A stretch of DNA of 64,000 bases from a virus. How positions within the stretch are numbered: the stretch's first letter is position 1; every line of letters starts with the position of its first letter. The stretch spans positions 1 through 64,000 of IMG/VR virus record IMGVR_UViG_3300031787_011371. One strand, 5' to 3'. Below, piece by piece: positions 1 through 62,360 of the stretch. The notes under the pieces were generated by a model. The model was given only the letters and a program-made list of their open reading frames with translations, was not told the origin of the DNA and did not search any database. The position numbers and the translations under genes were made by a program.

Positions 1-669
1 ACATCAGGCGCTAATGGTTCATCAGGAACTTCTGGAACTGCAGGAAGTTCTGGAACAAGCGGAACTGCAGGAAGCTCTGGCTCTGCAGGAAGTGCAGGCT
101 CTTCAGGTACATCAGGCGCTAATGGTTCATCAGGAACTTCTGGAACTGCAGGAAGTTCTGGAACAAGCGGAACTGCAGGAAGCTCTGGCTCTGCAGGAAG
201 TGCAGGCTCTTCAGGTACATCAGGTGCCAACGGTTCATCAGGAACTTCTGGAACTGCTGGTTCTTCTGGAACAAGCGGAACTGCAGGAAGTTCTGGTACA
301 AGTGGTACTGCTGGCTCTTCAGGTACATCAGGTGCCAACGGTTCATCTGGAACTTCTGGGACAGCTGGTTCTTCAGGAACAAGCGGAACTGCAGGAAGTT
401 CTGGTACAAGTGGTACTGCTGGCTCTTCAGGTACATCAGGTGCTAATGGTTCATCAGGAACAAGCGGAACTGCTGGTTCTTCAGGAACAAGTGGTACTGC
501 TGGTTCTTCAGGTACATCAGGAACTAGAGGTTCATCAGGAACTTCTGGAACAGCAGGTTCTTCAGGAACAAGTGGAACTGCAGGAAGTTCTGGTACAAGT
601 GGTACTGATGGTTCTTCAGGAACTTCAGGAACTTCAGGAACTGCAGGAAGCGCAGGCTCTTCTGGTACT
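1..669 (+). repeat. Gly-X-Y coding repeat, including a 108-bp tandem duplication (1-108/109-216)
   Basis: 9-nt periodicity; acatcaggcgctaatgg recurs at 1 and 109. Confidence 0.9.
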
Positions 670-1260
670 GGATTTAATACTATAACAAATCCATTAAATG
701 ATAGAGTATTAACTTCTTTAGGAACAACAAATACTGCAAATGCAGAAGCGAATCTTACATTTGATGGTACTCTATTACAAATTAGTGGTACAACTAGTGG
801 TGCAACTCTATTTAATATTATTGGTACACAAGGTCAATTGTTTAGTGTAAACGATAATCTTATAGGAGACATTTTTTCGGTTAATGATATTTCTGGTATT
901 CCAATATTAACTGTTAACTCTAATGATAGGGTAACTATTGATGGAACTTTAGTTTTAAATTCAACTTTATCAACTGGATTGGGTGCAGCAACTCATACTG
1001 TTGCAACAGTTGATATGTCATTAGGTCAAGCTGCTTATTTTGATTATTATGTTATGAGTGGAACAACATTAAGGTCTGGTGTTGTATTGGGAGTTTGGAA
1101 TGGAACATCTGCAAAATATACAGAAGTTTCAACAAAAGATTTAGGAGGAAACACAAATGCAGTTGATTTATCTGTTGATGTATCAGGTTCTGATGCTAGA
1201 CTTAGAGCAACAATTTCCAGTGGTACTTGGACAATAAAAACAGGTGTAAGAATAATTTAA
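1..1260 (+). CDS. 5'-truncated Gly-X-Y (GSS/GTS/GTA) repeat fibre protein with C-terminal beta-rich domain
   Basis: Frame 1 is open from base 1 (TSGANGSSGTSGTAG...) through to the stop at 1260. The listed 838..1260 ORF is only its C-terminus. It shares the GFNTITNP...NAEANLTFDG segment with 3461..8431. Confidence 0.85.
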   Translation, partial: TSGANGSSGTSGTAGSSGTSGTAGSSGSAGSAGSSGTSGANGSSGTSGTAGSSGTSGTAGSSGSAGSAGSSGTSGANGSSGTSGTAGSSGTSGTAGSSGTSGTAGSSGTSGANGSSGTSGTAGSSGTSGTAGSSGTSGTAGSSGTSGANGSSGTSGTAGSSGTSGTAGSSGTSGTRGSSGTSGTAGSSGTSGTAGSSGTSGTDGSSGTSGTSGTAGSAGSSGTGFNTITNPLNDRVLTSLGTTNTANAEANLTFDGTLLQISGTTSGATLFNIIGTQGQLFSVNDNLIGDIFSVNDISGIPILTVNSNDRVTIDGTLVLNSTLSTGLGAATHTVATVDMSLGQAAYFDYYVMSGTTLRSGVVLGVWNGTSAKYTEVSTKDLGGNTNAVDLSVDVSGSDARLRATISSGTWTIKTGVRII

Positions 1261-1264
1261 TATT

Positions 1265-1999
1265 ATGAGTAGCATTGGAGGGCCGAATATAATTAGAGAC
1301 GGATTAAAGGTTTTTTATGATTTTTCAAATACAAAATCATATCCAGAATCTGGCATGTCAATTATTGACTTAAGTCACAATCAAAATGGAACAATAAACA
1401 CAGCTACATATGGAGTTTATGGCGGAATTAAATCACTTTATTTTGACGGCACTTATGGGACTAGTGGTTATGTTGAATCAAATTCCTCAGTTGTATCAAA
1501 TTCATCTTTTTCTGTTTTAGCTTGGTGCAGAACGACTGATTCAAATAGAAGTGGTGGAACTCAGGGTAGAATGGTTTCGTCTACTTATGCATATCAAGGC
1601 AATGGAGTTAGCAAAGACACTGGTTGGATTTTGGGCACCACTTGGACTGGCACAAACTTTAATTTTTCTATATATGATGGAAATGGAGCATCTGCAACAG
1701 CAATTTTTTCAAATAATTGGTATACTCCAAATTTAAATAATTGGATTTTTGTTGTTGGTGTTTTTAGTGCTGGAACTTATGTTAGAAGTTTTCAAAATGG
1801 AATCAGAATAACAAATACAAACACAACAATATCTTTTTTAAGTGCACAAACTTCATCCCTCAAATGGGCAAGAAGAAGTGCTCAATCACAATCTAATTGG
1901 CTAGGTCAAATAGCAACTTGTATGTACTATGATATAGCTCTTTCAGATGAAGAGGTGTTACAAATTTATAATGCTACAAAATCACGTTTTGGTTTATAA
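1265..1999 (+). CDS. LamG/concanavalin A-like lectin domain protein
   Basis: GPNIIRDGL..YDFSNTKSYP start, FDG, W.FVVG and YDIALSDEEVLQIYNATKSRFGL end, typical of phage Laminin_G_3 proteins. Confidence 0.8.
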   Translation: MSSIGGPNIIRDGLKVFYDFSNTKSYPESGMSIIDLSHNQNGTINTATYGVYGGIKSLYFDGTYGTSGYVESNSSVVSNSSFSVLAWCRTTDSNRSGGTQGRMVSSTYAYQGNGVSKDTGWILGTTWTGTNFNFSIYDGNGASATAIFSNNWYTPNLNNWIFVVGVFSAGTYVRSFQNGIRITNTNTTISFLSAQTSSLKWARRSAQSQSNWLGQIATCMYYDIALSDEEVLQIYNATKSRFGL

Positions 2000-2013
2000 A
2001 TATATTTATAACT

Positions 2014-2664
2014 ATGAGTTTCTTTAGAGGTCCAAAAATAACAACAAGCGGTCTAATTTTATATTTAGATGCAGGAAATATTAAAAGCTATCCCACAAGT
2101 GGCACTTCTTGGTCTGATTTAACTAATAATTCATTTAATGCTACATTAGTTAATAGCCCAACATTTAGTAATGGCAATATTACATTTGACGGTCTGAATC
2201 AATATGTTAATCTAGGAAATATAGCACAAATAGCTCCTGGAACTGGGGATTTCACTATTTGTTTTTGGATTAACCCGACTAATTGGTCTAGCACCTATTC
2301 TCCACTATTTACTACAACTACAACAAATGGTCTTTGGATAGGGAAAAATCAGGGTAATTTTGTTTTGAGAGCTTATAATGTGGCAGATGATTTACAATAT
2401 TCAACATTTCCAACAGTAAATACCTGGACTTACGTTACAGTCACAAGAAGTGGAACAAGTGCTAATATTTATTACAATACCGCATCAGTAGTTAATAATG
2501 TGGTTACTAGAAATTATGTCACAGGAACTAGTGAAATTTGTCGTGATGGTACAACAAATGTATTTACTGGGAAATTTTCAATATTTAAATATTATAATAG
2601 AGCATTATCACAATCAGAAATAGAACAAAACTACAATGCTCTAAAAACAAGATTTGGATTATAA
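2014..2664 (+). CDS. LamG/concanavalin A-like lectin domain protein
   Basis: GPKITTSGLILYLDAGNIKSY...YNRALSQSEIEQNYNALKTRFGL. Confidence 0.85.
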   Translation: MSFFRGPKITTSGLILYLDAGNIKSYPTSGTSWSDLTNNSFNATLVNSPTFSNGNITFDGLNQYVNLGNIAQIAPGTGDFTICFWINPTNWSSTYSPLFTTTTTNGLWIGKNQGNFVLRAYNVADDLQYSTFPTVNTWTYVTVTRSGTSANIYYNTASVVNNVVTRNYVTGTSEICRDGTTNVFTGKFSIFKYYNRALSQSEIEQNYNALKTRFGL

Positions 2665-3326
2665 TGTACACAGGACCTAAAATAATTACAGATAATTTAA
2701 TTTTATGTTTAGATGCTGCAAACATAAAATCATATACAAGCGGTTCTACTTATTGGTACGATTTGAGTAAAACTATCAGCGGTTCTACATTAATAAACAA
2801 CCCTTCTTTTGATAGTAGTGTTAATGGAAGTTTATATTTTAATGGAACAGATGAATACGCTAATTGTGGCAACTTTTCTTCACAACAAATAACAAGTGGA
2901 ACTATTTTATGTTGGTTTAAAGGACAACAACAAGGCAATGACTACAATGGAATAGTTGTTAAATCTGGAGCTTGGGGAATTTTTATATTTCAATCTAAAT
3001 TATACCTATATGATTGGGGTAATGGCGTTGGCAGAGACACAGGAGTAAATGTATCAGATAACACTTGGAGAAATGTAGCTTTTACATTTTCTAGCACAGA
3101 ATTAGGACTGTCAAATAACTCTTTTGTATATATAAACGGCAATCAAGTTTTAAATACCACAGTAAAACATTCAACACATTCATCTCCATTGCTTGTTGGA
3201 TATGGAAATTGGTTGTCCCAATATTTCCAAGGCAATATATCTTATTTACAAATATACAACCGTGTACTTACAGGTGTAGAAATTAAACAAAATTATAATT
3301 CAACAAAATCCCGTTTTTCTTTATAA
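2664..3326 (+). CDS. LamG/concanavalin A-like lectin domain protein
   Basis: GPKIITDNLILCLDAANIKSY...IYNRVLTGVEIKQNYNSTKSRFSL; TAATG coupling with the upstream gene. Confidence 0.85.
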   Translation: MYTGPKIITDNLILCLDAANIKSYTSGSTYWYDLSKTISGSTLINNPSFDSSVNGSLYFNGTDEYANCGNFSSQQITSGTILCWFKGQQQGNDYNGIVVKSGAWGIFIFQSKLYLYDWGNGVGRDTGVNVSDNTWRNVAFTFSSTELGLSNNSFVYINGNQVLNTTVKHSTHSSPLLVGYGNWLSQYFQGNISYLQIYNRVLTGVEIKQNYNSTKSRFSL

Positions 3327-3343
3327 TTTTTATTTTTATAATA

Positions 3344-3351
3344 TATTTATA
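3344..3351 (+). promoter_or_regulatory. Putative late promoter TATTTATA
   Basis: The same octamer lies on the coding strand upstream of several other genes (see findings). Confidence 0.5.
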
Positions 3352-3364
3352 AAGTGCAATTGCT

Positions 3365-3456
3365 TTGGACAGTGAAGAAGTAATTAGTCTATATTAAAAG
3401 CATATTAATTTATGTTTATAGATACTTTTTTATTGTCCAATTTTAAAAAAAGTATC
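3365..3456 (+). promoter_or_regulatory. Structured 5' leader with two mutually exclusive stems
   Basis: 3365-3382 pairs with 3423-3440 (18/18 bp, 3 G-U). Alternatively, 3421-3431 pairs with 3446-3456 (11 bp), next to the ATG at 3461. Confidence 0.65.
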
Positions 3457-3460
3457 GAAA

Positions 3461-6400
3461 ATGTCTAACGAATTTATTGCTAGAAAAGGTTTGGTAGTTC
3501 AGTCTCTTACAACAGGTACGACTGAAACTGAAATCCTTGTTGTTGATAGTGATGGATTAGTTAAAGTAAGAACAAGTATAGCTTTAGGTGGTTCTTCTGG
3601 GTCTTCTGGTACAAGTGGTACGTCTGGTTCATCAGGAAGTTCTGGTACATCAGGTTCTTCAGGAACTTCTGGTACGGCTGGAAGTTCTGGTACTAGTGGT
3701 ACAGCAGGTTCTTCTGGAACTTCTGGTGCTAATGGTTCTTCAGGTTCTTCAGGAACTTCTGGTACGGCTGGAAGTTCTGGTACTAGTGGTACAGCAGGTT
3801 CTTCTGGAACTTCAGGAACTAGAGGCTCATCAGGAACTTCTGGAACTGCTGGCTCATCAGGAACTTCTGGAACTTCTGGCTCATCAGGTTCTTCAGGAAC
3901 TTCTGGTACAGCAGGTTCTTCTGGTACTAGTGGTACAGCAGGTTCTTCTGGTACATCAGGCGCTAATGGTTCTTCAGGTTCTTCAGGAACATCAGGCGCT
4001 AATGGCTCTTCAGGTTCTTCAGGAACTTCTGGTACAGCAGGTTCTTCAGGAACTTCTGGTACAGCAGGTTCTTCTGGAACTTCAGGAACTAGAGGCTCAT
4101 CAGGAACTTCTGGAACTGCTGGCTCATCAGGAACTTCTGGAACTTCTGGCTCATCAGGTTCTTCAGGAACTTCTGGTACAGCAGGTTCTTCTGGTACTAG
4201 TGGTACAGCAGGTTCTTCTGGTACATCAGGCGCTAATGGTTCTTCAGGTTCTTCAGGAACATCAGGCGCTAATGGCTCTTCAGGTTCTTCAGGAACTTCT
4301 GGTACAGCAGGTTCTTCAGGAACTTCTGGTACGGCTGGAAGTTCTGGTACTAGTGGTACAGCAGGTTCTTCTGGAACTTCTGGTGCTAATGGTTCTTCAG
4401 GTTCTTCAGGAACTTCTGGTACGGCTGGAAGTTCTGGTACTAGTGGTACAGCAGGTTCTTCTGGAACTTCAGGAACTAGAGGCTCATCAGGTTCTTCAGG
4501 AACTTCTGGTACGGCTGGAAGTTCTGGTACTAGTGGTACAGCAGGTTCTTCTGGTACATCAGGCGCTAATGGCTCTTCAGGAAGTTCTGGCTCTGCAGGA
4601 AGTGCAGGTTCTTCAGGAACTGGATTTAATACAATAACAAATCCTGCAGATAACAGAGTATTAACATCACTTGGCACAACAAACACTGCTAACGCAGAGG
4701 CTAATCTTACGTTTGATGGTTCTCTTTTAGATGTGACTGGAGGTGTTAATGTTCAAAATGGAAATAACATTACTTGGGGAGGTACATATGCAGCTGGAAG
4801 CCCAACTATTTCTTCATCAAATGCTGGAGCATCCTCTTATATTGGATTTTATCCACAAGGAGTTACATCAGGTGAGATTGTAAGAATACAAGCATCTGGA
4901 AATACGACAATAAACGGCACTTTAACAGTTCAAACTATTGCATCAGGTACTACAACCGATGTATTAGTAAAAGAATCGACAGGAAGAGTTACATATAGAA
5001 CTCTTGCTTCTATAGGAGGTACTTCAGGTTCTTCTGGCACAAGTGGTACGGCAGGCTCTTCTGGTACAAGTGGTACGGCTGGAAGTTCTGGTACTAGTGG
5101 TACAGCAGGCTCTTCAGGAACTTCAGGAACTAGAGGCTCATCAGGAACTTCTGGTACGGCTGGAAGTTCTGGTACTAGTGGTACAGCAGGCTCTTCAGGA
5201 ACTTCTGGAACTGCTGGCTCATCAGGTACATCAGGCGCTAATGGCTCTTCAGGTTCTTCAGGAACTTCTGGTACAGCAGGTTCTTCAGGAACTTCTGGTA
5301 CGGCTGGAAGTTCTGGTACTAGTGGTACAGCAGGCTCTTCAGGAACTTCAGGAACTAGAGGCTCATCAGGAACTTCTGGAACTGCTGGCTCATCAGGAAG
5401 TTCAGGCTCTTCAGGAAGTTCAGGCTCTGCAGGAAGCGCAGGTTCTTCTGGTAGAAATAATCCTCAATATTGGACTTCTGGTTCAACTTGGAACGGAACA
5501 AACTATCCAATTAAAGCAGATAATAATAGTGGTTTAGATTCTACTGGTTCATATGCTGTTGCTGAAGGATTTAAAACATCAGCATTTGGAGATTATTCTC
5601 ATGCTGAAGGTCGTGATGGAACATCACTAGGTCGTTCTTCTCATGCAGAAGGAGAAAACACAAAAGCTCTTAGTGCATATACTCATGCAGAAGGCTTTCA
5701 AACAATTGCATCAAACATTGCTGCACACGCAGAAGGAAGTGGTACAACGGCAAGTGGACAATATTCTCATTCTGAAGGCCATAAGTCAACTGCATTTGGA
5801 GATGGTTCACATGCTGAAGGTGGTGCGGTAATAAGCTTGACACCTTTTAGTGGAGGTACTGCTATTGGTGCAAGTTCACATGCGGAAGGTATTGAAACAA
5901 CATCTTTTGGTATAGTATCACATTCTGAAGGTGTATATACTACCGCATTTGGAGAAGGTTCACACGCTGAAGGACTTTACTCTTTTGCTTATGGAACATA
6001 TTCTCATACTGAAGGTGATAATACAACTGCTAGTGGAAATTCATCTCATGCAGAAGGACTTAATAGTGTTGCATTTGGAAATAATTCACATGCTGAAGGG
6101 TATAACACAACGGCAATAGGTGCGTTTGGTTCACACTCTGAAGGTGATTATACAACTGCATTTGGAGATGGTTCACATGCTGAAGGAAGCGGTACACTTG
6201 CTTTTCAAGAAAGGTCTCATGCAGAAGGTAGTTTTACCACATCTGTAGGATTAGCTTCTCACTCTGAAGGTCAATATACAACTGCTATTGGTAATTACTC
6301 TCATGCAGAAGGTAGTGGTACTACAGCAGTTGGAATTAGTTCACATGCAGAGGGTTATCAAACAACAGCTTTTGGCCTTTATTCTCACACAGAAGGTTCT

Positions 6401-8431
6401 GGAACAACTGCAAGTAACACACATTCTCATTCTGAAGGTACTAACACAAAAGCAACTGGTTTAGCAGCTCATGCTGAAGGTGATTTAACACTCGCTAGTG
6501 GTTCAACATCACATGCCGAAGGTTATCAAACAATAGCTGGTGGTGATTATTCACACTCAGAAGGTTATCAGACAATTGCTAGCGGCTTATATTCCCACGC
6601 TGAAGGTCAGTCATCAAGAGCAACTAATAATGATTCACATGCTGAAGGTTTAGGTACATTAGCAAGCGGAGCAAATTCACATACTGAAGGTCAATTAACA
6701 ACCGCCAGTTCCTCAAATTCACATGCTGAAGGTATACTAACAACAGCCGCTGGTTCACCATCACACGCTGAGGGTACTGCAACAAAAGCTATTGGTGATG
6801 CATCACACTCTGAAGGTAATACTACATTTGCAAGTGGTGCAAGTTCACACGCAGAAGGTTGGTTAACAACAGCGGCAAACACAGCATCTCACGCAGAAGG
6901 TTATCAAACAACAGCTTTTGGCCTTTACTCTCACGCAGAAGGTTCTGGAACAACTGCAAGTAACACATATTCTCATTCCGAAGGTACTAATACAAAAGCA
7001 ACTGGTTTAGCAGCTCATTCTGAAGGTGATTTCACACTCGCTAGTGGTTCATCATCACACGCTGAAGGTATTCAAACTACAGCGTCAGGAAATTATTCAC
7101 ACGCTGAAGGTGCGTCAAATACAGCTATTGGTTCACAGTCACACACTGAAGGTGCATTAACAAGTGCTATCGGTCAATCATCACACGCTGAGGGTGAACT
7201 TACAATAGCAAGTGGTCAAGGTTCTCATTCTGAAGGTGCTGGAACTATAGCTAGTGGTGGATTCTCGCATGCTGAAGGTAGAATAAGTACAGCATTTGGA
7301 TTATATTCTCACGCAGAAGGCTCTGGAACAACTGCAAGTAACACAGCGTCTCATTCTCAAGGTGCTAATACAAAAGCAACTGGTTTAGCAGCTCATGCTG
7401 AAGGAGAATCCACAATAGCTTCAGGAGATTATTCACATGCACAAGGACTTTCAACAACAGCTTCTAGCACATATGCTCACGCTGAAGGAAGATTGACAGT
7501 AGCAAGCGGTTTATTTTCACATGCTGGAGGAGATGGGTCTCTTGCTGGAACTGCAGCATACACTTTCGCTCATGGACTTTCGTGTATTGCATCTGGTCAG
7601 TCCTCTGTAGCTATGGGTGCATATGCTAGAGCAACTTCTTTAGGTGCAGTTGCCATGGGAAGAGGTCCTAGTGTATCTTCTCCTTTAGTAGCAGGAGCGC
7701 AAGGTGCTATAAATTTAAGTTATAGAGCTTCTGCAACTGCAGGTCTTGGAGAAATTTATGGATTATACTCATCATTGGTTGGTGGATTAAATAATTTGAT
7801 AGATATAAATGGAGACCAATCTGGTATATTTGTAGGTACTACTAATGCAATAAGTGCATCAACATCTGCTATAATAGCAGGAAATAGTTGTGTTATTGGT
7901 ATAGGTCATAGTAATAGTATAATATTAGGTGGAACCTCTCAAACTACAGATGGTTCTGGTCAAGTTGTATTAGGTGGAATAAGAAGGCTTGGGTGGGTAT
8001 ATTCTAATACATTAACAGCAGCAATAGCAAATACATCTAACACAAACTACACTCAAATATTCAACTTTACAGCAGTTGCAAACTCCATTTATAGGGCTAA
8101 CATTATAGGTACATATCAAACTGCAGCTTTAACTACTGGAATAAAGGTTAGACTAAGTGGTACTGCAACTTGTAACGTAGTAGGTAGAATGTATGGTGCA
8201 ATATCAGCTAACGCAGTTGCTACAGAATTAGCTTTTCCAGCAACAACAATGACTTCAGAACTTGTAACGACTGATGTGTCGGCTACAAACACACCTCACC
8301 ATATTGGTGCAGATATTATTTTTAGATGTACGGTGGGAGGTACAGTTATAGTCGCAATGGCATCTGAGGTTAACGCCTCATCTGCACAATTAAATATAGG
8401 AACTTCAATGATTGTAGAACGAATAAATTAA
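3461..8431 (+). CDS. Large tail fibre/adhesin: two Gly-X-Y Ser/Thr tracts, about 45 14-aa SHAEG (YadA-head-like) repeats, C-terminal domain
   Basis: 1656-aa ORF; the repeats are read directly from the translation. Confidence 0.85.
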   Translation: MSNEFIARKGLVVQSLTTGTTETEILVVDSDGLVKVRTSIALGGSSGSSGTSGTSGSSGSSGTSGSSGTSGTAGSSGTSGTAGSSGTSGANGSSGSSGTSGTAGSSGTSGTAGSSGTSGTRGSSGTSGTAGSSGTSGTSGSSGSSGTSGTAGSSGTSGTAGSSGTSGANGSSGSSGTSGANGSSGSSGTSGTAGSSGTSGTAGSSGTSGTRGSSGTSGTAGSSGTSGTSGSSGSSGTSGTAGSSGTSGTAGSSGTSGANGSSGSSGTSGANGSSGSSGTSGTAGSSGTSGTAGSSGTSGTAGSSGTSGANGSSGSSGTSGTAGSSGTSGTAGSSGTSGTRGSSGSSGTSGTAGSSGTSGTAGSSGTSGANGSSGSSGSAGSAGSSGTGFNTITNPADNRVLTSLGTTNTANAEANLTFDGSLLDVTGGVNVQNGNNITWGGTYAAGSPTISSSNAGASSYIGFYPQGVTSGEIVRIQASGNTTINGTLTVQTIASGTTTDVLVKESTGRVTYRTLASIGGTSGSSGTSGTAGSSGTSGTAGSSGTSGTAGSSGTSGTRGSSGTSGTAGSSGTSGTAGSSGTSGTAGSSGTSGANGSSGSSGTSGTAGSSGTSGTAGSSGTSGTAGSSGTSGTRGSSGTSGTAGSSGSSGSSGSSGSAGSAGSSGRNNPQYWTSGSTWNGTNYPIKADNNSGLDSTGSYAVAEGFKTSAFGDYSHAEGRDGTSLGRSSHAEGENTKALSAYTHAEGFQTIASNIAAHAEGSGTTASGQYSHSEGHKSTAFGDGSHAEGGAVISLTPFSGGTAIGASSHAEGIETTSFGIVSHSEGVYTTAFGEGSHAEGLYSFAYGTYSHTEGDNTTASGNSSHAEGLNSVAFGNNSHAEGYNTTAIGAFGSHSEGDYTTAFGDGSHAEGSGTLAFQERSHAEGSFTTSVGLASHSEGQYTTAIGNYSHAEGSGTTAVGISSHAEGYQTTAFGLYSHTEGSGTTASNTHSHSEGTNTKATGLAAHAEGDLTLASGSTSHAEGYQTIAGGDYSHSEGYQTIASGLYSHAEGQSSRATNNDSHAEGLGTLASGANSHTEGQLTTASSSNSHAEGILTTAAGSPSHAEGTATKAIGDASHSEGNTTFASGASSHAEGWLTTAANTASHAEGYQTTAFGLYSHAEGSGTTASNTYSHSEGTNTKATGLAAHSEGDFTLASGSSSHAEGIQTTASGNYSHAEGASNTAIGSQSHTEGALTSAIGQSSHAEGELTIASGQGSHSEGAGTIASGGFSHAEGRISTAFGLYSHAEGSGTTASNTASHSQGANTKATGLAAHAEGESTIASGDYSHAQGLSTTASSTYAHAEGRLTVASGLFSHAGGDGSLAGTAAYTFAHGLSCIASGQSSVAMGAYARATSLGAVAMGRGPSVSSPLVAGAQGAINLSYRASATAGLGEIYGLYSSLVGGLNNLIDINGDQSGIFVGTTNAISASTSAIIAGNSCVIGIGHSNSIILGGTSQTTDGSGQVVLGGIRRLGWVYSNTLTAAIANTSNTNYTQIFNFTAVANSIYRANIIGTYQTAALTTGIKVRLSGTATCNVVGRMYGAISANAVATELAFPATTMTSELVTTDVSATNTPHHIGADIIFRCTVGGTVIVAMASEVNASSAQLNIGTSMIVERIN
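3588..4623 (+). repeat. Gly-X-Y tract 1 with an exact 270-bp tandem duplication (3791-4060 / 4061-4330)
   Basis: Line-by-line comparison shows the two 270-nt blocks are identical. Confidence 0.9.
5016..5451 (+). repeat. Gly-X-Y tract 2
   Basis: Continuous GTS/GSS/GTA triplets. Confidence 0.9.
5590..7580 (+). repeat. 42-nt/14-aa SH(A/S/T)EGxxTxAxG repeat array
   Basis: Recurrent tc(t/a)ca(t/c)gc(t/a)gaagg at about 42-nt spacing. Confidence 0.9.
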
Positions 8432-20581: not shown

Positions 20582-20604
20582 ATTATATAAATATATTACA
20601 CAAA

Positions 20605-27250: not shown

Positions 27251-27374
27251 CTTTTATAGTTTATTTTTATTTTAAATTATATATATTATTTCATATTTAT
27301 TATATATGTAAATAGTTAACGAAAAAAGTCTTTATTTTTTTGATAACACTATTTATTTAATATTAAAAAGAAAT

Positions 27375-35200: not shown

Positions 35201-35214
35201 TATTCATAATATTA

Positions 35215-35246
35215 TTTGGTTTTTTTAATGGCATTTATTATATTTG
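35215..35246 (+). promoter_or_regulatory. Bacteroidota-type promoter pointing away from the sigma gene
   Basis: TTTG(35215-18)-N20-TATATTTG(35239-46). Confidence 0.6.
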
Positions 35247-35249
35247 TAA

Positions 35250-35337
35250 ATGCCCTACAATTATCGTCTCTATTTGTTGGGGGTATTTTGATAAGTAAAA
35301 ATAGCAGACCTCTGCAAAGGTCTGCTATTTGTTTTTT
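35250..35337 (+). ncRNA. Candidate small RNA (or leaderless 13-aa peptide mRNA)
   Basis: Promoter, G-U-containing 5' hairpin and terminator all lie within an intergenic gap. Confidence 0.4.
35297..35337. terminator. Intrinsic terminator, probably bidirectional
   Basis: 13-bp stem AAATAGCAGACCT/AGGTCTGCTATTT with A and T tails. Confidence 0.8.
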
Positions 35338-37463: not shown

Positions 37464-37518
37464 ATTAAATTATTTTTTTATTTAAAAATAATAATGTTTT
37501 TCAAAAAGTAAATGATAA

Positions 37519-37551
37519 CAAAAAAAAAGCCCCTAAATTTTAGAGGCTTTT
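37519..37551 (-). terminator. Intrinsic terminator
   Basis: AAAAGCCCCTAA..TTAGAGGCTTTT hairpin with a long U tract on the minus strand. Confidence 0.7.
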
Positions 37552-37566
37552 AGAAAAAAAATTAAA

Positions 37567-38244: not shown

Positions 38245-38291
38245 AATTTTATTTTTGTATATAATTTATATAATAAAAATAAAATGTAAAT

Positions 38292-38318
38292 AAAAAAGCC
38301 TCTTTTCAGAGGCTTTTT
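38292..38318. terminator. Intrinsic terminator
   Basis: AAAAAAGCCTCT-TTTC-AGAGGCTTTTT. Confidence 0.8.
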
Positions 38319-38319
38319 A

Positions 38320-59978: not shown

Positions 59979-60047
59979 TGGATAATTTAAAAAAGATTTT
60001 TTCAAACTATTTATCTTAAAAATTATAACAATTCTAATAATTTAGAA

Positions 60048-61220: not shown

Positions 61221-61229
61221 TTAAATTAT

Positions 61230-61275
61230 AATCAAAAAAAACCCTCAGCAATTAAGTTGAGGGTTTTTTTTGATT
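61230..61275. terminator. Bidirectional intrinsic terminator between convergent genes
   Basis: AATCAAAAAAAACCCTCAGC / GTTGAGGGTTTTTTTTGATT. Confidence 0.85.
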
Positions 61276-61287
61276 TAAAAATTAAAA

Positions 61288-61503
61288 TTACAAAACCATT
61301 TTTCCTGACATATTACCTTCTGATATTTCAAAAGAATTATGACAACAATTACATGTATATACTTTTACATTTTTAGTTTGTTGTATTTGTTGGCCTTGTG
61401 AATCTAACAATAAATTACTTCCGTTTTCTATAACGGTTTTTACACTTTCCAAAAAAGTTGCACTATCACAACCATGTGGACATTTCATTTTTTGAATTAA
61501 CAT
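61288..61503 (-). CDS. Small zinc-ribbon protein
   Basis: CPHGC ... CNCC. Confidence 0.65.
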   Translation of the reverse strand: MLIQKMKCPHGCDSATFLESVKTVIENGSNLLLDSQGQQIQQTKNVKVYTCNCCHNSFEISEGNMSGKMVL

Positions 61504-62258: not shown

Positions 62259-62360
62259 ACAGTTAAAATTTATTTTGTTTATAAATAGTTTGATAATTTA
62301 TAATATTTATTATTGTCAAGTTAATTTTACTTTATATTTATTTTTAAGAAAAAGAATTTT

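Follow-up and report, generated by a model that had tools for sequence, protein, structure and literature searches.

A conserved, covarying hairpin in the leader of a jumbo-phage tail-fibre gene and its possible role in a lineage-specific RNA relay

The leader of a tail-fibre gene in an A+T-rich jumbo myophage (27% G+C) contains a small hairpin, P1, with a covarying stem and a nearly invariant loop, and in this lineage the 134-nt spacer also holds a long hairpin that draws on the same nucleotides (Table 1). The window analyzed is a stretch of 64,000 nucleotides (positions 1 to 64,000) from the 73-kb IMG/VR record IMGVR_UViG_3300031787_011371. Based on the folding models and the comparison of relatives, the structure of the leader probably controls fibre synthesis. 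We propose that P1 is a gene-specific post-transcriptional operator and that the long hairpin is a lineage-specific add-on that would relay the occupancy of P1 to the start region, a reading to which we give a probability of roughly 0.4. Little is known about the control of fibre dose and timing in large uncultivated phages, and post-transcriptional control has been documented mainly in T4-like models. P1 offers a concrete and testable handle on this control: it is supported by covariation, has an invariant loop, occurs once per genome, and is tied to one structural gene.

Table 1. Features of the fibre-gene leader and its neighbours, in positions of the window.
Feature	Position	Strand	Basis
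LamG-type (concanavalin-A-like) gene, upstream neighbour	2664..3326	+	ORF list; Pfam Laminin_G_3, E 1e-16
Stop codon of the LamG-type gene	3324-3326	+	ORF list
TATTTATA, possible -10-like promoter element, 6 nt 5' of P1	3344..3351	+	tentative
P1, conserved small hairpin	3358..3385	+	local fold; covariation; covariance model
Long hairpin	3365..3440	+	RNA fold, shuffles, pair probabilities
Lower stem of the long hairpin	3365-3381/3424-3440	+	MFE
Inner helices of the long hairpin	3387-3393/3417-3423; 3399-3404/3411-3416	+	MFE
Upstream ORF (uORF), 18 codons, uncertain	3412..3468	+	ORF inspection
Alternative hairpin, mirror copy of P1	3421..3456, stem 3421-3431/3446-3456	+	inverted repeat; fold
A-rich initiation region without Shine-Dalgarno, plus fibre ATG	3441..3463	+	sequence
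Tail-fibre gene, 1656 aa	3461..8431	+	ORF list; Pfam Collagen, E 2e-65; PHROG tail-fibre families

P1 consists of a 9-bp stem (3358-3366/3377-3385, two G-U pairs) and a 10-nt loop (3367-3376, GGAHAGUGAA) in which all columns but one are invariant among 15 distinct sequences. In these sequences, 89.6% of the cells were paired and eight of the nine pairs had changed on both sides (score 0.844 vs 0.288 shuffled, 0 of 500 shuffles as high; slid controls 0.095-0.268). The same held for a smaller set of seven sequences, with 91.4% of cells paired, both-side changes at 7 of 10 pairs and none of 500 shuffles reaching its score. G-U pairs make up roughly 20 of the 135 stem cells, which is consistent with the sense strand, and the records that carry P1 span 31% to 61% G+C. 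The pairing of a conserved loop with a covarying stem, as expected for an operator, was thus found in all 15 sequences taken together. Within P1, the 5' arm of the long stem corresponds to the loop and 3' strand; P1 itself did not figure in the first-pass annotation's reading of that arm. Complements to the P1 loop in trans showed no excess over a reversed-pattern control in four records, and their number in the window was not significant (7 vs 3.3 expected, with 7 of 100 shuffles having as many).

The covariance model detected exactly one copy of P1 in each of five whole records, two of which are 97-100% complete, and one copy in the window, where the exact core motif also occurs once; no further significant match was present in 573 kb of loci. 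The core motif in record G005 lies inside a coding region and was set aside as chance, and the pattern of motif plus start had 0 matches in prokaryote genomes. In 11 of the 15 leaders, all preceding MSNEF-type fibre genes, the end of the loop is 8-14 nt from the ATG (11 nt in six), and in eight of these close-set leaders the whole gap between upstream stop and ATG measures only 25-62 nt. The distance is larger in the remaining four (84 nt in the window, 77 nt in L028, 74 nt in L033, and 86 nt in L050). Since the L050 group has this wide layout without any complement in cis, P1 may act without touching the start region. At two loci (L061 and L065), P1 abuts the upstream stop codon. Nine of the 15 sequences came from a search pattern combining the motif with the fibre N-terminus, and one more (L033) from an arm-pattern search, so that the constant position before MSNEF genes is partly built in; an unbiased protein search found P1 in 10 of 17 metagenome loci and not in the other 7. 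A query with the fibre C-terminus matched 25 loci on SHAEG-type repeats only, and the one comparable N-terminus among them was that of a 140-aa MANEF gene (L025) with a short plain leader.

The fibre protein begins with MSNEFIARKG and continues with collagen-like and then SHAEG-type repeats. Paralogue alignment places the upstream LamG-type gene as the third of three in tandem, and its protein retrieved no relative when used as a query against viral contigs. Of the 72 gene starts in the whole record, just 7 are preceded by a Shine-Dalgarno-like tetramer, and there is an excess of A at -3 and at -10 to -12, which suggests that the host may not use standard signals. The element TATTTATA lies 12-18 nt ahead of the P1 loop in 7 of the 15 leaders. 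Genome-wide, TATTTAT occurs upstream of genes 13 times in sense and 8 times in antisense orientation, and because this bias is only modest, we keep the promoter reading as tentative. A sigma-70-like pair at 3366-3395 was set aside: it is one of 30 consensus matches where 19.8 are expected, and the host signals are probably non-standard.

The long hairpin had been proposed in the first-pass annotation from two arms (3365-3382/3423-3440), and these read as described, with 18 of 18 positions paired, three of them as G-U; they are also listed as an 18-nt inverted repeat with 83% Watson-Crick pairs. All but one of these pairs are in the MFE structure; the exception, 3382:3423, reached a probability of only 0.46 because 3387:3423 competes with it, whereas the core pair 3374:3431 reached 0.999 in the full leader. 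Both enclosed helices were also recovered, the first somewhat extended. In keeping with an RNA structure on this strand, the + strand of 3327-3480 folded at -31.9 kcal/mol compared with -20.47 +/- 3.03 for shuffled sequences (z -3.77, 0 of 200 shuffles as good), while the - strand folded weakly (-17.7, z -1.95, 7 of 200 as good). On its own, the long hairpin, which consumes the loop and the 3' strand of P1, has -28.6 kcal/mol (z -7.7). Its position ranks 34th among about 14,650 windows of 90 nt on both strands of the whole record, and everything ranked above it is either G+C-richer collagen-repeat coding DNA or one of four other intergenic hairpins. Contrary to the first-pass annotation, the leader is not unusually long: 11 of the 24 gaps of at least 35 nt in the record reach at least 100 nt, one of them (686-837) being an artefact of the ORF caller. 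An exact search for the 18-mer in viral contigs gave one match, in a coding region of an unrelated contig, and was put down to chance.

The 3' arm has a second possible partner, and the alternative pairing proposed earlier proved to be an exact 11-bp inverted repeat ending 4 nt before the ATG at 3461 (-8.6 when folded alone, z -3.65). Its loop holds the complement of the P1 loop and the reverse complement of 3421..3456 aligns with the P1 region; the 3' arm looks like an inverted copy of P1. Once formed, this alternative hairpin is predicted to cover most of the start region. The first-pass view of a two-state structure therefore stands insofar as 3421-3440 can pair with either 3365-3382 or 3446-3456, two exclusive partners, with P1 competing for 3365-3385, but the two states are far from balanced. 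At equilibrium in the full leader, their probabilities are about 0.999 for the long stem and about 0 for the alternative hairpin, which rises to 0.95 when the RNA starts at 3383; in these folding models, its formation requires a 5' arm that is missing or held. In energy, the long stem stands at -29.1 and the combination of P1 and mirror hairpin at -18.9, a gap of about 10 kcal/mol. With populations so far apart, a switch needs a trigger, which the first-pass annotation left unnamed. Because the 5' arm corresponds to a small conserved hairpin in its own right, a factor holding P1 is a plausible trigger, and a protein-controlled translational switch of this kind is possible; given the lead of the long stem, the factor would need to act during transcription. 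The mean unpaired probability of 3441-3463 is 0.61 when the long stem is in place.

Among homologous leaders, the pairing was conserved in the two closest (L028, and L033, which equals L044), despite different inner sequence, but not in the other 12. Only three of the 15 leaders, those of the window, L028 and L033, had a significant complement in cis (in each case, 0 of 200 shuffles did as well), and in the 12 other P1 leaders no downstream loop complement was better than shuffles. The long stem is present in all three of these leaders and the alternative hairpin in two, three sequences being too few for covariation. Long stem versus P1 plus mirror hairpin came to -21.0 vs -16.2 in L028 and -20.1 vs -8.8 in L033. 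The mirror hairpin of L028 is retained with changed flanking pairs (12 bp, -8.8, z -3.55), and that of L033 is essentially lost (-1.2 kcal/mol, z +0.43). MAFFT misaligned the 3' parts of these three long leaders, and its alignment was therefore not used for counting pairs. A scan with the arm pattern returned six stretches, of which two were true (L033 and L035, the latter being the L028 contig) and four were unrelated coding DNA. When 25 nt upstream of P1 were included in the RNA, the accessibility of the start region fell from 0.49 to 0.18 in L028 and from 0.435 to 0.31 in L033, with 0.17 and 0.29, respectively, for RNA beginning 300 nt upstream. The window gave 0.54 from P1, 0.54 from 25 nt further upstream and 0.56 from 300 nt upstream.

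We suggest the following mechanism for these observations. The spacer would be transcribed as leader or intercistronic RNA of the fibre gene, with P1 as its functional core, whose reader would most likely be a phage protein that restricts fibre translation or sets its timing; in most relatives, the purine-rich 3' strand of P1 would sit at the place of ribosome binding. The 84 nt that separate P1 from the ATG in the window make direct occlusion impossible, and a relay is needed. We infer that a factor binds P1, that control is exerted at the level of translation, and that the relay comes from an inverted copy of the P1 region which this lineage gained on the ATG side of P1. Three helices would then exclude one another: P1 by itself, the mirror hairpin (3421-3456), and the long hairpin (3365-3440). 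By default, it would adopt the long hairpin, leaving the start region open for the fibre to be made. If a factor held P1 as it emerges from the polymerase, the freed 3' arm would pair with the start region and translation would be turned off. It counts against the relay that its second helix is essentially lost in L033, and that complementarity between the arms comes free with an inverted duplication.

The likeliest rival is that P1 alone is functional and that the long and alternative hairpins are tolerated by-products of the inverted duplication, with no switch involved. Such tolerance would be expected, as the default fold leaves the start region open, and every mismatch is a G-U, the outcome that C-to-T drift would give at 27% G+C. 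In L028 and L033, the match between the reverse-complemented 3' part and the P1 region extends past the core; L033 has a decayed alternative hairpin; and 12 of the 15 P1 leaders do without any complement. Against this, the core of the 3' arm is identical in all three leaders and each has a continuous extended helix, even though the enclosed sequences can no longer be aligned, and the long stem has z-scores of -3.5 to -7.7 in all three. We consider this explanation unlikely on balance.

Somewhat less credible is a role of the long hairpin in processing or stability, either as an RNase III-type site, at which a cut would part the fibre mRNA from the upstream message, or as a hairpin at the 5' terminus that would shield the long fibre mRNA against 5'-end-dependent decay. 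An RNase III site would call for about two turns of near-continuous duplex. The structure is strand-specific, the predicted helices of the window (17+7+6 bp) would stack into a near-coaxial helix of about 30 bp, and the spacing between P1 and TATTTATA is such that P1 may be the extreme 5' end of the transcript. However, uninterrupted pairs number only 13-14 in L028 and L033, a stabilizer needs no invariant 10-nt loop, and the loci at which P1 abuts the upstream stop place it inside the message.

A further rival, which we hold to be improbable, makes the uORF the controlling element: ribosomes would melt the 3' arm, which the uORF crosses, and terminate on the fibre ATG, which its stop overlaps, so that initiation on the fibre gene would depend on translation of the uORF. 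The window, L028 and the L050 group each have a uORF of 18-27 codons that begins with ATG and extends into the start of the fibre gene. Such ORFs are rare in shuffled spacers (83, 80, and 170 of 2000, respectively, or about 4-8.5%), and indels within this stretch between the window, L028 and L033 are multiples of three. In the L050 group, the uORF ATG is 10 nt after the P1 loop, the position that the fibre ATG has in simple leaders. Yet the start in L033 can only be GTG or TTG, the substitutions among relatives are all non-synonymous, the stop is dictated by the first codons of the fibre gene itself, and the uORF ATG of the window lies inside an inner helix, 35 nt from P1.

P1 could also act on transcription, as a leader hairpin through which RNA polymerase acquires an antitermination or processivity factor for an unusually long fibre gene. 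This would fit its single copy per genome in leaders of 2.5-5 kb genes and the fact that, in the two lineages with expanded spacers, P1 has kept to the 5' side, but the tightly fixed distance from loop to ATG points to initiation and no candidate factor emerged. We rate this explanation as quite improbable. The hairpin is most improbably a terminator of the upstream LamG-type operon or a DNA element (cruciform, operator, or invertible segment): four U follow the stem in the window and the inverted repeat is present in the DNA, but a terminator scan reported nothing here, and an intrinsic terminator would have a compact G+C-rich stem followed directly by at least five U. The four U are followed by seven A, an A-run follows the stem in L028 and L033, and 6-9 U follow the short G+C stems that are clear terminators elsewhere in the record. 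RNA is favored by the G-U pairs and by the weakness of the - strand fold, and the 40-57 nt between the arms are fewer than known invertible segments need.

A bolder version of the operator reading would make P1 a new and widespread class of phage RNA operator, present once per jumbo-phage genome, through which a phage protein would keep fibre synthesis in step with virion assembly, with a cis 'anti-operator' in the window's lineage relaying its occupancy over 84 nt. The reader could possibly be free fibre, through its co-conserved N-terminus, or an assembly partner of the fibre. We regard this version as doubtful. The 32-nt P1 RNA suffices as bait for a binding partner, P1 conveniently marks the 5' boundary of fibre genes of this family in metagenomes, and the window suggests that an inverted duplication can rewire such an element into a structure with alternative folds.

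Protein-read leader hairpins that set translation, processivity or processing include the MS2-type coat-protein operators, the leader elements of NusG paralogues, and the RNase III sites of T7 and lambda; to our knowledge, none of these element types occurs before tail-fibre genes. The leader differs from them in having no sequence or covariance-model similarity to any Rfam family. The Rfam comparison suggested in the first-pass annotation found no family at gathering score, with 0 matches to Rfam 15 in the 64-kb window and, within 3300-3500, 13 matches of E 1.4-9.4 and 11.6-17.8 bits, compared with gathering scores of 35.7-140. A full-text search of the literature did not turn up any account of a conserved hairpin ahead of tail-fibre genes. 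The 8,495 candidate structured RNAs that PMC10690425 catalogues in intergenic regions of IMG/VR share our data source and are objects of the same kind; in the main text of that paper, which this comparison covered, 'tail' and 'jumbo' each occur 0 times.

The closest anatomical parallel is the operator of gene 43 in T4 and RB69, an autogenously controlled DNA polymerase gene. In the relevant passages of PMC3014915, this operator is a small hairpin upstream of and overlapping the ribosome-binding site, and a phage protein recognizes its loop bases, which related phages have in common. P1 shares this anatomy in 11 of the 15 leaders but differs in the class of gene (a structural fibre), in loop size and sequence, in having a putative reader only, and, in the window, in its remoteness from the ATG. 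The same passages describe T4 gene e and I-TevI, in which a hairpin sequesters the start region and a late promoter lies in its 5' strand (PMC3014915). The likeness is that the start is open or closed depending on the presence of the 5' strand in the RNA, and gene e-type behavior, closed in read-through RNA and open in RNA from the proximal promoter, is predicted for L028 and L033 but not for the window, where loss of the 5' arm is predicted to close the start region instead of opening it. In T4 genes 25 and 38, whose initiation regions are split, as described there, conserved leader hairpins bring the Shine-Dalgarno near the AUG (PMC3014915). These resemble the present case in that a hairpin in the leader of a virion gene reshapes the geometry of the start and arose in one sub-lineage, whereas our phage is nearly without Shine-Dalgarno sequences and has its conserved element inside the stem, not beside it.

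The two 18-nt arms that the first-pass annotation placed in the leader of the large fibre gene are correct as quoted and pair fully, three G-U pairs included, and a pair-probability fold puts the inner helices where they had been described. Assignment of the structure to RNA of the + strand is borne out by a fold of -31.9 kcal/mol (z -3.77, 0/200 shuffles as good), next to an unremarkable - strand (z -1.95); folded alone, the long hairpin reaches -28.6 kcal/mol (z -7.7). Among about 14,650 segments of 90 nt scored over the whole record, the one with this hairpin stands 34th; all those above it come from repeat coding DNA of higher G+C or from four other intergenic hairpins. The alternative hairpin is an exact 11-bp helix ending 4 nt before the ATG. 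Both pairings of the proposed two-state element are possible, but they are not balanced: the full leader is computed to form the long stem with a pair probability of 0.999 and the alternative with one of about 0, the latter reaching 0.95 only in RNA without the 5' arm. Any fold leaving the 5' arm to itself is at best about 10 kcal/mol less stable than the long fold, and with the long stem formed the fibre start region has a mean unpaired probability of 0.61.

Unexpectedly, the 5' arm proved to be a widely conserved motif. In every leader that carries it, it forms a small local hairpin, which we call P1, with a stem that varies by phage and the 10-nt loop GGAHAGUGAA. Relatives were found in IMG/VR and metagenomes by a protein search with the fibre N-terminus, which takes no account of the leader; in this unbiased search, P1 was present in 10 of 17 metagenome loci and absent from 7. 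In three relatives (L045, L046 and L055) the motif is 11 nt upstream of the fibre ATG, and in another set of leaders (the L050 group) 10 nt before an ATG opening a short upstream ORF (uORF), which begins 10 nt after the P1 loop. A motif-plus-start pattern yielded nine further leaders in viral contigs, eight of them distinct (L059 = L060), and no matches in prokaryote genomes. Among the resulting 15 distinct sequences, nine of which came from the pattern requiring both motif and fibre start, homologous leaders covary in P1: 89.6% of stem cells are paired and 8 of 9 stem pairs have changed on both sides. P1 scores 0.844 for covariation; shuffled controls score 0.288 +/- 0.044 (0/500 as high) and slid controls 0.095-0.268, and the first seven sequences alone give the same picture. 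Since many of its pairs are G-U, P1 is a sense-strand RNA. With the 15 sequences turned into a covariance model, a single copy was recovered per record in all five whole records searched, of which two are 97-100% complete, and 573 kb of DNA from the retrieved loci gave no further significant match. Records hosting P1 leaders range from 31 to 61% G+C. The loop lies 8-14 nt from the ATG in 11 of 15 leaders, and in eight the upstream stop is only 25-62 nt from the ATG, so that P1 nearly fills the intercistronic spacer. Given this conservation, copy number and position, P1 is a gene-specific, single-copy, conserved RNA hairpin and not a promoter or terminator of general use.

Related loci fall into several leader types. 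The long hairpin is common to the window and two of these, represented by L028 and by L033 (identical to L044), the latter recovered by an arm-pattern scan; the arm cores are the same in all three, and the inner sequence is unalignable yet still forms one continuous helix. At 67% identity, the nearest N-terminus is that of L036 and its copies, which follows an 84-nt leader lacking any element of this kind. Another group (L029, L047, L048, L049 and L056) has a distinct conserved leader. This second, unrelated type precedes MSNEF-type fibre genes, and in L029, L047 and L056 pairing joins a U-rich stretch to a G-rich element near the ATG. A downstream complement of the P1 loop occurs only in the window, L028 and L033 (0/200 shuffles each); in the other 12 P1 leaders it is no better than in shuffled sequence. 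Read as its reverse complement, the 3' part can be aligned to the P1 region; this makes the hairpin at 3421-3456 a mirror copy of P1, with a loop complementary to that of P1. An inverted duplication inserted downstream of P1 and ahead of the ATG would be its simplest origin. L028 has retained the mirror hairpin well, with flanking pairs changed (12 bp, -8.8, z -3.55), and in L033 it has decayed (-1.2, z +0.43).

Across the record, a Shine-Dalgarno-like tetramer precedes only 7 of 72 gene starts, and the starts are A-rich (A enriched at -3 and -10 to -12); local structure should therefore dominate initiation. The pattern suggests a host initiating without Shine-Dalgarno pairing, such as Bacteroidota, an assignment that we infer from these signals. 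In three of four expanded leader types, an ATG-started uORF runs through the 3' arm and stops atop the fibre ATG, as happens in 4-8.5% of shuffled spacers. The four uORFs share one frame relative to the fibre gene and stop 7-10 nt into it; their peptides are not conserved. Words resembling ATATTTAT / ACTATTTAT stand in sense orientation 4-50 nt upstream of many start codons, some only 4-5 nt before the ATG, and may be a phage promoter element of modest enrichment.

Beyond the helices, their energies, and the conservation, copy number and position of P1, we infer, tentatively (probability about 0.4), that P1 is read by a factor controlling fibre translation, and that in the window its occupancy is relayed to the start region. 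In simple leaders the purine-rich 3' strand of P1 lies within the start region, an anatomy matching the T4 gene 43 operator as described in PMC3014915; a factor reading the invariant loop and stabilising the stem would repress the fibre gene. In the window the same logic would be preserved only through the relay: P1 held would free the 3' arm to close the start region, and P1 free would allow the long stem to form, perhaps by loop-on-loop nucleation, leaving the start open. Against the relay, its helix is lost in L033, arm complementarity would come free with a duplication, and P1 lies 86 nt from the ATG in the L050 group without any complement. As the L050 arrangement suggests, P1 could act from a distance, via stability, processing or polymerase loading. 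In L028 and L033, RNA starting upstream of P1 is predicted to bury the start codon region (accessibility falling from 0.49 to 0.17-0.18 in L028 and from 0.435 to 0.29-0.31 in L033), resembling T4 gene e as described in PMC3014915; in the window, by contrast, accessibility is constant at 0.54-0.56. In both relatives the palindrome extends outward and brings a TATTTAT-containing segment into pairing with the start codon region; by prediction, the fibre start is closed in RNA beginning upstream of this segment and open in RNA beginning at P1.

An intrinsic terminator at the leader hairpin is rejected, as a terminator scan reports none there and the L028 and L033 leaders have an A-run after the stem. 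Unlike the leader hairpin, the terminators evident in this record have short G+C stems with 6-9 U after them; these stems measure 8-13 bp, or about 20 bp at the 61.2-kb site, in which the A and U runs pair too. A-runs and U-runs flank them, and several are apparently bidirectional.

We class the element with phage leader hairpins acting as operators or switches; its P1 / anti-P1 arrangement is unusual. No Rfam family matches it, and full-text literature searches returned no account of such an element preceding tail-fibre genes. It may be among the 8,495 unnamed candidate RNAs of a 2023 IMG/VR catalogue (PMC10690425), which that article lists in its supplements only.

Coordinates of features in the window and related loci
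Feature	Locus	Position	Strand	Remark
LamG-type gene	window	2664-3326	+	upstream neighbour of leader
Tail-fibre gene, 1656 aa	window	3461-8431	+	downstream of leader
P1	window	stem 3358-3366/3377-3385, loop 3367-3376		
Alternative (mirror) hairpin	window	3421-3431/3446-3456		
uORFs, 18-27 codons	window	3412-3468		
	L028	2943-3011		
	L033	13018-13083		
	L050	1425-1508		
Extended palindrome	L028	2877-3003		
	L033	12952-13075		
Second leader type	L029	2892-3000		
Canonical terminator hairpins	window	35201-35335, 37464-37566, 38245-38319, 61221-61290		
	genome	71982-72042		
ATATTTAT / ACTATTTAT-like words	window	2001-2013, 20582-20604, 27348-27356, 33.9-34.3 kb, 60006-60014, 62281-62289		and others
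LamG/ConA-like paralogues	window	1265-3326		three in tandem
Glycan-enzyme block	window	8845-59930	-	nearly continuous, 51 kb

The parent IMG/VR record has 73,366 bases, is an estimated 23% complete, and contributes its first 64 kb as the window. G+C is 24-29% outside two collagen-repeat genes, and is raised to 36-43% at 1-8000 because of long GSS/GTS collagen-like repeats; these account as well for the record's most stable predicted RNA folds and its sole DNA-level matches to other phages. Its genes include those for baseplate wedge proteins and PhoH, along with a very large block for sugar-modifying enzymes; with its A+T-richness, the record is therefore a fragment of a jumbo myophage. The leader occupies a 134-nt spacer between the LamG-type and tail-fibre genes, and in L029 a LamG-type gene likewise precedes the fibre gene. 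The tandem LamG/ConA-like paralogues, which share 39-40% identity with the first, end in a similar C-terminal motif and are flanked by two collagen-like fibre genes. Adjoining these fibre genes, the 51-kb block holds glycosyltransferases, FkbM- and other methyltransferases, GDP-mannose dehydratase/epimerase-type enzymes, an aminotransferase and an acetyltransferase, with baseplate and unknown structural-size genes scattered among them. For a phage, such a capacity to build glycans is very large, and it may serve to decorate virion fibres.
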